Shown: piece after piece, positions 19,660 to 37,277 of the stretch
Layout: every line of letters begins with the position of its first letter
Numbering within the stretch: the first letter of the stretch is position 1
Source of the DNA: Escherichia coli
Lineage (GTDB): Bacteria > Pseudomonadota > Gammaproteobacteria > Enterobacterales > Enterobacteriaceae
Reading direction: 5' to 3' (one strand)
Length of the DNA: 64,000 bases
Assembly: GCF_003790525.1 (NCBI RefSeq)
Contig: NZ_CP033635.1
Made by a program: the position numbers and the translations under genes
The notes under the pieces: model-generated
What the model was told of the DNA's origin: nothing
Seen by the model: the letters and a program-made list of their open reading frames with translations, nothing else
Databases searched by the model: none

Positions 19660-20615
19660 TGAAGCAACTTTGGTTTGCCATGTCATTAGTGACAGGTAGC
19701 CTGTTATTCTCTGCTAACGCCTCGGCCACTCCCGCGTCCGGGGCGTTATTACAGCAGATGAACCTGGCCAGTCAGTCACTGAATTACGAGCTGTCATTCA
19801 TCAGCATCAATAAACAGGGTGTTGAGTCTCTGCGTTATCGACATGCACGCCTCGATAACCGTCCTCTTGCACAATTGTTGCAAATGGATGGCCCGCGCCG
19901 GGAAGTGGTACAGCGCGGCAATGAGATCAGCTATTTTGAACCGGGACTTGAACCGTTCACGCTTAATGGCGATTACATTGTTGATTCTCTGCCATCGCTC
20001 ATCTATACCGATTTCAAACGCCTTTCTCCTTACTACGACTTTATCTCCGTCGGGCGCACGCGTATTGCTGATCGTCTTTGCGAAGTTATTCGCGTGGTTG
20101 CCCGAGATGGTACACGCTACAGCTACATCGTGTGGATGGACACCGAATCGAAATTACCGATGAGGGTTGATCTCCTTGATCGCGATGGTGAAACGCTGGA
20201 ACAATTTCGCGTGATTGCTTTTAATGTCAATCAGGATATCAGCAGCAGTATGCAGACGCTGGCGAAGGCAAATTTGCCGCCGTTGCTTTCTGTTCCTGTA
20301 GGTGAAAAAGCTAAATTCAGCTGGACGCCAACCTGGTTGCCACAGGGTTTTAGCGAAGTTTCCAGTAGTCGACGTCCGCTACCGACGATGGACAACATGC
20401 CTATTGAATCACGTCTCTATTCCGACGGATTATTCAGCTTCTCGGTAAACGTTAACCGCGCTACGCCATCGAGCACCGATCAGATGTTGCGCACCGGACG
20501 CAGAACCGTCAGTACAAGCGTACGTGATAACGCCGAAATCACCATTGTCGGTGAACTGCCGCCGCAAACGGCGAAACGCATTGCCGAGAATATTAAGTTC
20601 GGGGCAGCGCAATGA
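19659..20615 (+). CDS. rseB: sigmaE regulatory protein RseB
   Basis: 318-aa ORF with signal peptide (MKQLWFAMSLVTGSLLFSANASA); start overlaps the rseA stop by 1 nt (TAATG). Confidence 0.95.
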   Translation: MKQLWFAMSLVTGSLLFSANASATPASGALLQQMNLASQSLNYELSFISINKQGVESLRYRHARLDNRPLAQLLQMDGPRREVVQRGNEISYFEPGLEPFTLNGDYIVDSLPSLIYTDFKRLSPYYDFISVGRTRIADRLCEVIRVVARDGTRYSYIVWMDTESKLPMRVDLLDRDGETLEQFRVIAFNVNQDISSSMQTLAKANLPPLLSVPVGEKAKFSWTPTWLPQGFSEVSSSRRPLPTMDNMPIESRLYSDGLFSFSVNVNRATPSSTDQMLRTGRRTVSTSVRDNAEITIVGELPPQTAKRIAENIKFGAAQ

Positions 20616-21091
20616 TCAAAGAGTGGGCTACCGTCGTCTCCTGGGAAAACGGGCAGGCGCTGGTTAGTTGTGATGTTAAAGCCTCATGCAGCAGCTGCGC
20701 TTCACGCGCCGGTTGCGGTAGCCGCGTGTTGAATAAACTTGGCCCGCAAACCACGCATACCATTGTCGTACCCTGTGATGAACCGTTAGTGCCGGGGCAA
20801 AAAGTAGAATTAGGAATCGCCGAAGGCAGCCTGCTTAGCTCCGCATTACTGGTTTATATGTCGCCGTTGGTGGGACTATTCCTCATCGCTTCACTATTTC
20901 AGCTACTCTTTGCTTCAGATATTGCAGCATTATGCGGTGCGATTCTCGGTGGCGTTGGTGGATTCCTGATTGCACGTGGCTGCTCTCGAAAGTTTGCTGC
21001 CCGGTCTGAATGGCAACCGATCATCTTAAGCGTGGCCTTGCCGCCTGGCCTTGTGCGATTTGAAACATCTTCGGAAGACGCGAGCCAGTGA
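20612..21091 (+). CDS. rseC: sigmaE regulatory protein RseC
   Basis: 159-aa ORF, N-terminal cysteine cluster (CSSCASRAGC) and two TM segments; ATGA overlap with rseB. Confidence 0.93.
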   Translation: MIKEWATVVSWENGQALVSCDVKASCSSCASRAGCGSRVLNKLGPQTTHTIVVPCDEPLVPGQKVELGIAEGSLLSSALLVYMSPLVGLFLIASLFQLLFASDIAALCGAILGGVGGFLIARGCSRKFAARSEWQPIILSVALPPGLVRFETSSEDASQ

Positions 21092-21287
21092 TTTCACTGG
21101 CTTTGTTGCATTTTGCATAACAAATGCGAGGACGTTTCCAGATACCCAATCCATACGGTATGAACATTTCCTCGCCTCAATGTTGTAGTGTAGAATGCGG
21201 CGTTTCTATTAATACAGACGTTAAGCTCAGAACAGCGACTTCTAAAAGCCTGGTTAACCGGGCATTAAGGCACAATAATCATACTTT

Positions 21288-23087
<1,800 letters not shown>

Positions 23088-24122: not shown

Positions 24123-24223
24123 ATTATTTATGAGATAAATCTCCCGTGGCTAACGACATCCCCCGTCGTTGTGTATAGAATATTCCCCCGAAGTTTAAGG
24201 TTGGCACCTCCAGGTTGCCACGG

Positions 24224-24315
24224 CACACGAAACAGCGTTGGTCCCCATATACCGGTAAACTGAAACTGCAGCGAAGCAGTTAGCAGAACCATGTATATCA
24301 GGTCTGTTTCGTGTG
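24224..24315 (+). promoter_or_regulatory. rnc 5' leader long-range stem (candidate RNase III autoregulatory structure)
   Basis: 12-nt arms CACACGAAACAG (24224-24235) and CTGTTTCGTGTG (24304-24315) are exact reverse complements in the untranslated leader upstream of the rnc ATG. Confidence 0.55.
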
Positions 24316-24319
24316 CTGA

Positions 24320-25932
<1,613 letters not shown>

Positions 25933-27415: not shown

Positions 27416-27795
27416 TGGCAATATTAGGTTTAGGTACGGATATTGTGGAGATCGCTCGCATTGAATCGGTGATCGCCCGATCCGGTGAGCGCCTGGCACG
27501 CCGCGTATTAAGCGATAACGAATGGGCAATCTGGAAAACGCACCACCAGCCGGTGCGTTTTCTGGCGAAGCGTTTTGCTGTGAAAGAAGCGGCGGCAAAA
27601 GCGTTTGGCACCGGGATCCGCAATGGTCTGGCGTTTAATCAATTTGAAGTATTCAATGATGAGCTCGGCAAACCACGGCTACGGCTATGGGGTGAGGCAT
27701 TAAAACTGGCGGAAAAGCTCGGCGTTGTAAATATGCATGTAACGCTGGCAGATGAACGCCACTATGCTTGTGCCACGGTAATTATTGAAAGTTAA
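27415..27795 (+). CDS. acpS: holo-[acyl-carrier-protein] synthase
   Basis: 126-aa [20 protein letters not shown]...; 4'-phosphopantetheinyl transferase fold; start overlaps the pdxJ stop. Confidence 0.96.
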
Positions 27796-27811
27796 AAAAA
27801 TACCGTTCTCT

Positions 27812-27900
27812 TTATAAAGTAAAACCCCCGAACTGGTAAGGAACGGGGGTTTTACTTTACAACTTTAATTTTGTGCAGCACACGATTCCAACGGAAATGA
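27812..27900 (-). ncRNA. ohsC: OhsC antitoxin sRNA (approximate boundaries)
   Basis: Minus-strand segment between the bidirectional terminator and a candidate -10 (RC of 27899-27904 = CATAAT). Contains the antisense of GTGCAGCACACGATTCCAA (27873-27891), an 18/19 match to the shoB 5' UTR copy at 28122-28140. Ends are not determined. Confidence 0.5.
27818..27856. terminator. bidirectional rho-independent terminator (acpS on + strand, ohsC on - strand)
   Basis: AGTAAAACCCCCG-aactggtaaggaa-CGGGGGTTTTACT palindrome; both strands give a G/C stem followed by UUUUACUUUA. Confidence 0.8.
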
Positions 27901-28215
27901 TTATGGATCAATTTAGTTGACCTGTACAAGCAACTTGCAATCTCTGACATAAAAAACGCGAGCCTTTACGAAGAAATCGACATTGATGAAAAGATTAACG
28001 TGACCGCTTTTTGATAAGTACATTAAAATCGGTTTCGTTATTGGCAATTTTGCTGTGCTTTACACCATGCCACTGAATTCCCCCATTGAAACGAGTGGTG
28101 TCGTCAAAGCTCTGGTGTGGAGTGCAGCACTCGATTCCAATAACTCGCACGTTCAGTTTTGGGGTGATGTAAGGGCTAATCTGAACGGCTGCATTCCTTG
28201 TTTAAGGAAAAACGA

Positions 28216-28296
28216 ATGACTGATTGCCGATACCTGATTAAACGGGTTATCAAAATCATCATTGCTGTTTTACAGCTGCTCCTTTTGTTCTTATAA
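28216..28296 (+). CDS. shoB: ShoB small toxic membrane peptide (type I toxin), 26 aa
   Basis: ATG at 28216 preceded by AAGGA; encodes MTDCRYLIKRVIKIIIAVLQLLLLFL, a hydrophobic 26-mer; missed by the ORF track because of size. Confidence 0.85.
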   Translation: MTDCRYLIKRVIKIIIAVLQLLLLFL

Positions 28297-28315
28297 CACA
28301 AGGAAACGTACTTAA

Positions 28316-28352
28316 GGTGCGTCCGGTGAACCAATCGGACGCGCCTTTAATA
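28316..28352 (+). terminator. hairpin downstream of shoB (weak terminator)
   Basis: GGTGCGTCCG-gtgaaccaat-CGGACGCGCC followed by only TTT; weak U-tract. Confidence 0.45.
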
Positions 28353-28489
28353 ACTATAAATAAGTGTCTGGGCAGATACTATATAAATTTACTTAGTGAA
28401 TGATTATGCTAATTTCATCATTTAAATAAATATAATAGCGTTAAGGTTTCTCTATAAAATAATTAACACTCTACTTCCAGAGCAGAATA

Positions 28490-28786
<297 letters not shown>

Positions 28787-37093: not shown

Positions 37094-37277
37094 AGTGGCT
37101 CATTCACCGACTTATGTCAGCCCCTTCGGGACGTGCTACATAAAATTCGAATGACGCACAACAAGGTGCCTGCCGTCCAACTTCTGATATCAGCGTAGCT
37201 ATATCAACCCTCGGGCGAAACGTCGAGTTAGGCACCGCCTTATTCCATAACAAAGCCGGGTCATTCCCGGCTTTGTT
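37094..37277 (+). ncRNA. glmY: GlmY small regulatory RNA
   Basis: Starts ~12 nt after the -12 element (AGTGGCTCATTCACCGACTTATGTCAGCCCCTTCGGG...) and ends at the AAAGCCGGG-tcatt-CCCGGCTTT hairpin plus TGTTGTAT (37252-37277); no plausible ORF. 3' end approximate. Confidence 0.8.

Follow-up and report, generated by a model that had tools for sequence, protein, structure and literature searches.

The spacer between acpS and yfhL in the 64,000-nt stretch of Escherichia coli DNA analyzed here (the window) poses two questions: whether it carries a type I toxin-antitoxin pair, as proposed in a first-pass annotation, and what part a short repeat within it might play in bringing the toxin mRNA and the antitoxin RNA together.

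The shoB and ohsC genes and their genomic setting

The spacer, previously put at about 700 bp, measures 694 bp (27796-28489) and is bounded by the stop codons of acpS (27795) and yfhL (28490). Sequence comparison showed the shoB/ohsC region of the window to be 100% identical to that of E. coli strain SMS-3-5, and the RefSeq annotation of this identical sequence gives the gene order recO-pdxJ-acpS / shoB / yfhL-yfhH. On the plus strand, the 26-codon open reading frame that had been singled out runs from an ATG at 28216 to a stop at 28296 and shares both ends with the SMS-3-5 shoB coding sequence, which RefSeq names "type I toxin-antitoxin system toxin ShoB" (WP_000128777.1). The product is a 26-aa hydrophobic toxin (MTDCRYLIKRVIKIIIAVLQLLLLFL) with a GRAVY of 1.57 over the whole peptide and 2.9 over residues 11 to 26. 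It is identical to K-12 ShoB at 25 of 26 residues, the sole change being I22L; an NCBIfam search with the 26-aa peptide gave zero matches for so short a query. The Shine-Dalgarno (SD) sequence, rated good in the first pass, is AAGGAA (28204-28209), located 6 nt 5' of the ATG and in agreement with the published ribosome-binding site (PMC11264685). The shoB promoter (28000-28029, plus strand) consists of a -35 hexamer GTGACC (28000-28005), an 18-nt spacer, and a -10 hexamer TAAAAT (28024-28029), both hexamers being kept in >99% of loci (PMC11264685). Placing the mRNA start 7 nt past the -10 hexamer and the end just beyond the terminator hairpin yields a predicted primary shoB mRNA of about 315 to 320 nt (28036-28352, plus strand), the ends of which we infer from promoter spacing and the K-12 annotation. 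This length agrees with the published full-length form of ~320 nt (PMC5668327, PMC5397157); in K-12, shoB RNA occurs as ~320- and ~280-nt forms, and only the processed form is translated (PMC5397157, PMC5668327). The shoB terminator (28314-28352, plus strand) is an inverted repeat that forms a GC-rich hairpin (arms 28314-28325 and 28336-28347) followed by UUUAAUAA, and in the consensus fold its pair 283-308 varies among C-G, U-G, and U-A across strains. A further terminator call inside the shoB reading frame (28264-28276) was the sole match of a consensus scan that missed both real terminators, and it is probably spurious.

The minus strand carries ohsC (27814-27892). Over 27816-27892, the Rfam model RF02495 (ohsC_RNA) aligns in full (model positions 1-77 of 77) and scores 101.7 bits, the gathering score being 50 bits; this gives an RNA of 77 nt, and homology to K-12 b4608 gives one of 79 nt, in agreement with the published size of ~77 nt. 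The window gene begins at the same G as the K-12 ncRNA, and the predicted OhsC fold has a free energy of -25.5 kcal/mol (z = -4.1). Its promoter (27900-27929, minus strand) comprises a -10 hexamer CATAAT (27905-27900), an 18-nt spacer, and a -35 hexamer TTGTAC (27929-27924). Across loci, the -10 hexamer CATAAT is found in 100% and the -35 hexamer is TTGTAA in 66.8% and TTGTAC in 33.1% (PMC11264685, Table 2), so the window has the minority variant, whereas K-12 has TTGTAA. The bidirectional terminator postulated in the first pass is a near-palindromic hairpin at 27812-27862 (arms 27812-27830 and 27844-27862) that ends acpS on the plus strand and ohsC on the minus strand. Its 19-nt arms are 95% complementary and enclose a 13-nt loop, the ohsC terminator model matches both strands, and a palindromic ohsC 3' end is noted in the literature (PMC11264685).

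The K-12 record annotates both genes, shoB as b4687 and ohsC as b4608, and places them between acpS and yfhL in matching geometry. The MG1655 pair (RF02495) resembles that of the window in position, divergent layout, ribosome-binding site (RBS), shoB promoter hexamers, and ohsC -10 hexamer; both have a 180-nt leader and a 77-nt small RNA (sRNA) with no indels between them and with the pairing sites at the same positions. Between the two strains, the divergent-promoter region is 80% identical and the adjoining part of acpS 97%. Of 5,426 complete E. coli genomes, 5,425 have the locus between acpS and yfhL, and no plasmid-borne shoB/ohsC occurred in this set. Through the Rfam match, the RefSeq name, the K-12 geometry, the promoters, and the co-varying repeat described below, the assignment of the spacer to the ShoB toxin/OhsC antitoxin locus is upheld. 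We consider it very probable that this is a chromosomal shoB/ohsC type I toxin-antitoxin module, with the whole of the explanation proposed below, and nothing speaks against the identity of the locus.

The shoB/ohsC pair has been known since 2005 to 2008, and the locus is already described, its K-12 pair having been characterized experimentally; the identification here is correct but ordinary. As a finding, the locus matters little, being in Rfam and having its shoB annotated in RefSeq. The view that protein-only annotation misses it fails for the shoB coding sequence, which RefSeq includes here, but stands for ohsC, which is absent from this genome's RefSeq record, so that RNA-aware annotation adds something. 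In K-12, overproduced ShoB is toxic through membrane depolarization, and this toxicity is relieved by OhsC (Fozo 2008, as cited in PMC5668327 and PMC8309996).

The 19-nt repeat and its pairing potential

The repeat described in the first pass is present with its one mismatch as GTGCAGCACTCGATTCCAA at 28122-28140 and GTGCAGCACACGATTCCAA at 27873-27891. A search of the 64-kb window that tolerated up to three mismatches gave these two sites and no others, where 0.02 matches would be expected by chance, and two matches arose in none of 100 shuffles. The upstream copy falls in the OhsC 5' recognition segment (27873-27892, minus strand; OhsC nt 1 to 20) and the other in its target in the shoB 5' untranslated region (28122-28141, plus strand; mRNA +87 to +106), 75 nt 5' of the AUG. 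The proposal that OhsC is antisense to the shoB leader through this repeat is borne out, with OhsC nt 2 to 20 lying opposite leader +87 to +105. OhsC G1 may add a G.U pair with U28141, so that the duplex spans 20 positions, 19 of which pair in the window; the exception is a single internal U.U mismatch of OhsC U11 with shoB U28131. The predicted duplex energy is -34.2 kcal/mol, as against -16.4 ± 2.3 kcal/mol for shuffled OhsC 5' ends. A candidate third copy at 28055-28073 (68% match) was rejected; it offers no third pairing site and coincides in part with the 5' arm of a long-range helix described below.

Comparable systems are ZorO/OrzO and ZorP/OrzP of E. coli O157:H7, which, like shoB/ohsC, are divergently arranged and in which 18 nt pair between the sRNA 5' end and the leader (PMC3919570; PMC11264685). 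In these systems, the pairing region varies between copies and thereby sets target specificity, and repression survives a single internal mismatch in the duplex (PMC3919570; PMC11264685). For OrzO, a discontinuous stretch of 17 paired nt, interrupted by one internal mismatch, is enough (PMC11264685), and by analogy the window OhsC-shoB pair, with its 19 of 20 positions, would qualify. The latest survey holds that the pairing potential of shoB and ohsC "cannot yet be said" to be validated (PMC11264685), and it is this stated gap that the analysis of alleles addresses.

Allelic variation of the recognition segment

Among the 5,426 complete E. coli genomes, the pairing segment occurs as two co-varying alleles, A and B; in each partner, 7 of the 19 positions differ between them (recognition segment GUUGGAAUCGUGUGCUGCAC in the window versus GUUGAGGGUGCAUGCUGCAC in K-12). 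Allele A, that of the window and of strains such as SMS-3-5, 536, and O157:H7, is the less common and is found in 1,689 genomes; allele B, the K-12 type, is found in 3,128, or in about 3,635 when its wobble variant B2 (507 genomes) is counted, and a cognate pair is retained in at least 5,324 of the 5,426. Leader positions 28130-28137 change together with 27881-27888 between the alleles, and six of the seven differing pairs are compensated. When the 7 distinct haplotypes were tabulated by position, 95.7% of the cells paired in register, compared with 21 to 53% in slid controls, and three of the four single changes inside allele B preserve pairing (as G.U or A-U). Repair of the U.U mismatch of allele A was seen in none of the genomes searched. 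At the level of sequence, OhsC-shoB pairing is thus supported by concerted change at both copies of the repeat across E. coli. The same observations bear on the reading that no functional pair exists, in which the repeat is a vestige or a duplication of chance origin and the hairpin on the minus strand is just the acpS terminator. The concerted alteration of seven positions at both copies refutes it, and it is further countered by the low chance expectation for the repeat, by a full-length covariance-model match that takes in the non-terminator 5' half of ohsC, by the conserved ohsC -10 hexamer, and by the experimental work on K-12; we regard it as next to impossible.

The differences are concentrated in a small part of the leader. 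The leaders of the two alleles show 13 differences, seven of which sit within 8 nt, as happened in 0 of 200,000 simulations, and the flanks of this 8-nt core are invariant for 61 nt before and 27 nt after it. Seven changes on both RNAs within such a core, with invariant leader flanks, suggest that it was selection for pairing specificity, and not drift, that shaped the segment. The predicted energies of the cognate duplexes are -34 kcal/mol for A and -41 kcal/mol for B, allele A being about 7 kcal/mol weaker (-34.2 versus -41.4), and the cross pairs come to about -22 kcal/mol. Whether the segment should be described not merely as variable, as published, but as a set of distinct specificity alleles that co-evolved at a single-copy locus and are predicted to be mutually noncognate is in our judgment evenly poised. 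Such variants would differ from those of zor/orz, which are paralogues within one genome whose specificity avoids cross-talk, whereas those of shoB/ohsC are alleles of one single-copy locus.

If the alleles do determine specificity, recombination that parts the partners would be disfavored. A mixed, noncognate pair of ohsC and shoB was found in 1 of the 5,426 genomes, the natural recombinant strain Z1323CEC0015 with contig NZ_CP148423.1, and this rarity could be explained by tight linkage alone. The recombinant is evidently viable with its mismatched pair, which implies that OhsC pairing is not essential under all conditions. Three further apparent recombinants, recovered with a chimeric query joining a B-type ohsC to an A-type shoB, turned out on inspection to be ordinary allele B in which the shoB side carries a single T-to-C change; they were rejected because this change had by chance created a 28-nt seed. 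The other Escherichia species sampled have B-like sequences (for E. albertii and E. whittamii, the sequence covers the shoB side only, reaching 200 to 230 nt 5' of the ATG), and allele A therefore appears to be derived. The experimental work on K-12 concerns allele B, and the window carries allele A; in the literature searched, a set that excludes Fozo et al. 2008, we found no experiments on the window's allele.

Predicted leader folding and the proposed mode of repression

These features suggest the following course of events. Plus-strand transcription of shoB would start at a weak sigma-70 promoter and yield an mRNA of ~320 nt, of which 180 nt are leader, and the 26-residue hydrophobic product of shoB would depolarize the inner membrane on overproduction. 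The ohsC gene, transcribed divergently from a promoter ~130 bp upstream of that of shoB, would give a 77- to 79-nt RNA ending at the hairpin that also terminates acpS, and its first 20 nt would pair with the leader at +87 to +106. On the same numbering, the SD sequence lies at +169 to +174, and the AUG follows at +181. Direct masking of the RBS by OhsC seems unlikely because 75 nt separate the OhsC site from the start codon and because the SD sequence is enclosed in a hairpin of its own. OhsC would more plausibly block an upstream ribosome standby site, such as has been proposed for shoB (PMC5397157, PMC5668327), and the duplex is probably also an RNase III substrate, as are those of IstR-1 on tisB and OrzO on zorO.

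Two predicted structures shape this proposal. The first is the anti-SD/SD hairpin (28194-28209, plus strand), in which UUCCUU (28194-28199) pairs with AAGGAA (28204-28209). Every predicted fold includes it; across 13 sequences, five of the six pairs never vary and hence show no covariation. The SD sequence is ~8 to 24% unpaired in most modeled transcript forms; it is mostly paired in the modeled processed forms too, and folding alone thus fails to explain activation by processing. The second is a long-range helix with its 5' arm at 28037-28067 (plus strand), where mRNA nt 2 to 9 and 16 to 32 are predicted to pair with nt 102 to 109 and 78 to 94. The 111-nt 5' domain has a predicted energy of -45.4 kcal/mol (z = -6.07), and the helix recurs when 13 Escherichia sequences are folded to a consensus, with pair 9-102 appearing as G-C, A-U, or G.U. 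Covariation backs that pair only, since the 5' helix is almost invariant, and a covariation test of the mRNA fold is nearly uninformative, as 96% of the columns are identical; two lineages carry single disruptive changes in the helix. In the full-length leader, the flanks of the OhsC target are predicted to be 0% unpaired, and its core (nt 95 to 101) occupies an internal loop that is 45 to 87% unpaired. With 30 to 40 nt removed from the 5' end, the predicted unpaired fraction of the flanks is 34 to 48% at nt 87 to 94 and 37 to 92% at nt 102 to 106. As a second layer of control, the helix over the OhsC site would keep the full-length mRNA inert until ~40 nt are trimmed away.

The role of processing admits another reading, namely that OhsC binds the primary transcript and blocks the 5' processing that renders shoB mRNA translatable. 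The processed form alone is translated (PMC5397157), and the partly open target core could nucleate binding of OhsC to the full-length RNA. However, the flanks that provide 13 of the 20 pairs are ~0% unpaired in that form, which makes the processed RNA the better target, and the putative cleavage site near +40 lies ~45 nt from the OhsC site; we judge this reading unlikely. The modeled fold, in which both the OhsC site and the SD sequence are hidden, fits a standby mechanism like that of tisB/IstR-1 of E. coli. In that system, as in shoB/ohsC, the sRNA gene is divergent and the sRNA 5' end pairs over ~20 nt at a site well upstream of the RBS; the RBS is sequestered and the primary toxin transcript inactive until activated by 5' processing (PMC5668327, PMC5397157), as the modeled fold would have it for shoB. 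The standby mechanism of tisB has been demonstrated (PMC7708055; PMC5668327; PMC5397157), whereas the standby site of shoB is hypothesized. The two systems have no sequence relationship and also differ in their control: LexA/SOS governs tisB, and regulation by CpxR is reported for shoB/ohsC (PMC9600279).

A more serious competitor, which we hold as a tentative possibility and nonetheless a good deal less probable than not, dispenses with the standby site: OhsC would act mainly by triggering degradation, RNase III cutting the 20-bp duplex so that shoB mRNA is destroyed. At ~20 bp, the duplex has sufficient length for RNase III, and it is predicted to be strong (-34 to -41 kcal/mol), and OrzO and IstR-1 each provoke RNase III cleavage of their targets (PMC5668327). 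For tisB and zorO, however, cleavage accompanies repression and is not its only cause (PMC5668327; PMC3919570), and the conserved SD hairpin needs a route for ribosome loading, which degradation alone does not offer. The U.U mismatch of allele A should not prevent cleavage and so does not discriminate between the standby and degradation models. The natural alleles, together with the one natural recombinant strain, make the questions of the standby site and of specificity directly testable.

The SD hairpin could also be opened by translation. In a scheme like that of hok and mok, ribosomes translating a leader frame of 50 to 54 codons would open the hairpin, and OhsC, binding within the frame, would stop this. 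Such a frame (28055/28067-28219) is open in 13 of 13 Escherichia sequences and closes with a stop codon that overlaps the start of shoB (ATGA, 28216-28219). Yet neither of its starts is preceded by an SD sequence, its ATG is lost in two lineages, a stop stands at codon 3 in one, and its substitutions are almost all nonsynonymous, including an allelic LDS / CTL / RIL block. Moreover, an antisense RNA inside an open reading frame does not normally halt elongating ribosomes, and we regard such coupling as highly improbable. In other respects, shoB/ohsC as modeled here resembles Hok/Sok (plasmid R1 and chromosomal copies), likewise a type I system with a small membrane toxin, in which long-range pairing with its own end locks the mRNA until processing activates it. 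Sok is cis-encoded and overlaps the mok start, and hok is activated by 3' trimming; hok translation is coupled to that of mok, whereas the shoB leader frame bears no signs of translation.

Identity and layout of the shoB/ohsC locus

The first-pass annotation had read the acpS-yfhL spacer (694 bp, from the acpS stop at 27795 to the yfhL stop at 28490) as a shoB/ohsC type I toxin-antitoxin pair, and this reading is supported by a noncoding-RNA family match, the RefSeq and K-12 annotations, and published promoter elements. The Rfam family ohsC_RNA (RF02495) matched at full length on the minus strand (27816-27892; 101.7 bits; gathering score, 50), and a weaker plus-strand match spans the terminator half only, because the terminator is palindromic, as was also remarked on in PMC11264685. 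In the RefSeq record of strain SMS-3-5, whose sequence is identical, the ORF is named "type I toxin-antitoxin system toxin ShoB" (WP_000128777.1) and ohsC is not annotated at the locus; in K-12, shoB (b4687) and the ncRNA gene ohsC (b4608) are both annotated in the same spacer, with the 5' end of the annotated OhsC at the G equivalent to 27892. The promoter elements of shoB (plus strand; -35 GTGACC, 28000-28005; -10 TAAAAT, 28024-28029) and ohsC (minus strand; -35 TTGTAC, 27929-27924; -10 CATAAT, 27905-27900) match those in Table 2 of PMC11264685, where TTGTAC is the variant found in 33.1% of loci. The locus itself has been described before. Novel beyond that are a recognition segment that exists as two co-evolved alleles, a U.U left unrepaired in the window allele, and one natural mismatched recombinant, although the allelic compensation may already have been noted in Fozo et al. 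2008.

On reanalysis we recovered the features proposed from the sequence: the 26-codon ORF (28216-28296; product MTDCRYLIKRVIKIIIAVLQLLLLFL), its Shine-Dalgarno sequence (AAGGAA, 28204-28209), the near-palindromic hairpin at 27812-27862, and the 19-mer at 28122-28140, whose second copy, at 27873-27891, has one mismatch. No further match to this 19-mer with up to three mismatches occurs within the 64-kb window (chance expectation, 0.02). The U-tract past the OhsC terminator (27812-27816, minus strand) is interrupted in the window strain (…UUUUACUUUAUAAAG); that of K-12 reads …UUUUACUUUUUAAAG. The region 27700-28500 is 100% identical to SMS-3-5 and at least 11 other genomes among the matches listed, and the locus, in some version, is present as a single copy in 5,425 of 5,426 complete E. 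coli genomes, chromosomal every time.

Two alleles of the OhsC-shoB recognition segment

If shoB transcription starts at 28036, 7 nt past its -10 hexamer, and stops directly beyond the GC-rich hairpin (28314-28347), the primary mRNA is ~315 to 320 nt long with a 180-nt leader, in agreement with the published full-length species of ~320 nt (PMC5668327, PMC5397157). Nucleotides 1 to 20 of OhsC are complementary to leader nt +87 to +106 (28122-28141), forming in the window a duplex with 18 Watson-Crick pairs, a G.U at the end, and a single U.U mismatch in the interior (OhsC U11 against U28131), with a predicted energy of -34.2 kcal/mol versus -16.4 +/- 2.3 for shuffled OhsC 5' ends.

An alignment of 15 E. 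coli haplotypes, taken at even steps of the similarity ranking, plus K-12 revealed two forms of this segment. In allele A (the window, 536, and O157:H7), the ohsC copy is GTGCAGCACACGATTCCAA and the shoB copy GTGCAGCACTCGATTCCAA; in allele B (K-12 and O104:H4), both copies are GTGCAGCATGCACCCTCAA. The alleles differ at 7 of 19 positions in an identical manner at two sites 250 bp apart, leaving six base pairs with full compensation and duplex position 11 as U.U in allele A. Across the seven distinct ohsC/shoB combinations, 95.7% of cells are paired and five pairs have changed on both sides, counts that reflect essentially one historical split and so amount to compensation at six positions, not to six independent events. 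The co-variation holds in register only, sliding the partner by 1 to 3 columns leaving 21 to 53% paired. Seven of the 13 leader differences between allele A and K-12 are packed into 8 nt, flanked by 61 invariant nt before and 27 after, a clustering seen in 0 of 200,000 random placements. Identity between the alleles is 77% in OhsC nt 1 to 30, 80% in the divergent-promoter region and 97% in the adjoining acpS 3' end.

Most of the single changes seen in allele B keep RNA pairing rather than DNA identity: T-to-C on the ohsC side in the wobble variant B2 yields a G.U, C-to-T on the shoB side in strain E69 yields a second G.U, and G-to-A at OhsC nt 1 replaces the terminal G.U with an A-U. The sole disruptive change within B is an A.C mismatch in the three genomes examined (predicted duplex, -36.6 kcal/mol). 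The shoB sites of E. albertii, E. whittamii, and three further Escherichia lineages are B-like, so that allele A appears to have been derived within E. coli. The E. albertii NBRC 107761 site equivalent to 28122-28140 reads GTGCAGCACGCATCCTCAA, two changes from allele B.

We then counted the combinations with 128-nt chimeric queries, in which the wrong allele is unable to supply a 28-nt megablast seed. Allele A at both sites was found in 1,689 genomes, B at both in 3,128, and B2 ohsC with B shoB in 507, a cognate pair being kept in at least 5,324 of 5,426. A-type ohsC is combined with B-type shoB in just one of the 5,426, E. coli Z1323CEC0015 (NZ_CP148423.1; breakpoint equivalent to window ~27935-27945), whose duplex is predicted at only -21.5 kcal/mol. 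The census held no true converse recombinant (B ohsC with A shoB), three apparent cases being rejected as allele B with a single SNP, and no "repaired" allele A, on either side, was present in the genomes searched. Cross-allele duplexes, predicted at -21.5 to -26.5 kcal/mol, are about as strong as the strongest formed by shuffled sequences (best of 500, -24.8 kcal/mol). By the pairing rule for OrzO, the antitoxin RNA of zorO (15 contiguous pairs, or 17 with one mismatch; PMC11264685), cross-allele pairs would fail and the cognate A pair would pass.

Leader structure and the mode of repression

From a site 75 nt upstream of the AUG, OhsC would be unable to mask the ribosome-binding site directly. 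Leader nt 1 to 111 are predicted to fold far better than shuffled sequences (-45.4 kcal/mol, z = -6.07), nt 2 to 9 pairing with nt 102 to 109 and nt 16 to 32 with nt 78 to 94. These 5' helix pairs would close the flanks of the OhsC site in the primary transcript, where the model leaves them ~0% unpaired, with the variable core alone in an internal loop; with 30 to 40 nt removed from the 5' end, the unpaired probability of the flanks is 0.34 to 0.92, depending on flank and allele. A consensus fold of 13 Escherichia sequences recovered the same helix. Its pair 9-102 is G-C (allele A), A-U (K-12 type), or G.U, and the remainder is invariant, hence without covariation, apart from single disruptive changes in two lineages. 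The Shine-Dalgarno sequence is predicted to pair with UUCCUU ten bases upstream in all 13 sequences and is mostly paired in the modeled processed forms too.

Only the processed form (~280 nt) is reported to be translated (PMC5397157), and this, together with the folding predictions, fits a tisB/IstR-1-like standby scheme, as proposed for shoB by the authors of PMC5397157. The shoB primary transcript would be inert, and 5' processing would uncover an upstream single-stranded site; ribosome loading there would give access to the structured ribosome-binding site, and OhsC would compete for the upstream site, probably drawing RNase III. We put the chance that standby competition is the main effect of OhsC at about even. 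Repression dominated by decay is possible, if somewhat doubtful, and we think it quite improbable that OhsC acts by blocking 5' processing of the shoB mRNA.

A leader reading frame at 28055-28219 (plus strand; 54 codons from GTG, or 50 from the ATG at 28067) spans the OhsC target. Its TGA overlaps the shoB ATG (ATGA), and it is open in 13 of 13 Escherichia sequences, as coupling of shoB translation to it would have it; however, it has no Shine-Dalgarno sequence, two lineages have lost its ATG, codon 3 is a stop in one lineage, and its substitutions are almost all non-synonymous. Judged from the sequence, the frame is probably not coding, and we regard such coupling as very unlikely. As regards standby competition, the two alleles, the unrepaired U.U and the natural recombinant together make both this question and that of specificity easy to test.

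Variation around the module and other features of the window

The acpS 3' haplotype (27600-27795) does not follow the toxin-antitoxin allele (compared over 27863-28035). O157:H7 (allele A) and haplotypes L012 and L013 (B2) have a common acpS variant pattern, 96.9% identical, versus 78 to 80% identity across the ohsC 5' part and promoter region, which suggests exchange of the module as a unit. The AT-rich, mosaic stretch from the shoB terminator to yfhL (28353-28489) is far more divergent than its surroundings, with 58 to 67% haplotype identity versus 89 to 97% in the yfhL 3' end; haplotype L006 has allele A upstream yet is like haplotype L014 downstream, placing recombination breakpoints near the shoB terminator.

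In EC96 (NZ_CP060748.1), an IS1 directly precedes the ohsC -10 hexamer, and the shoB annotation is lost; in 2017.10.01CC (NZ_AP027800.1), an IS1 follows ohsC and shoB is unannotated in the stretch examined. Both seem to be antitoxin-only strains such as those mentioned in PMC11264685.

ARAGORN found no tRNA genes anywhere in the window, not even past the 5S gene. Other above-threshold Rfam matches were the 23S rRNA 3' part and 5S rRNA (1-2519), AsrC, antisense to rseC (20576-21406, minus strand), the rncO leader of the rnc-era-recO operon (24190-24404), and the GlmY sRNA (37094-37241).
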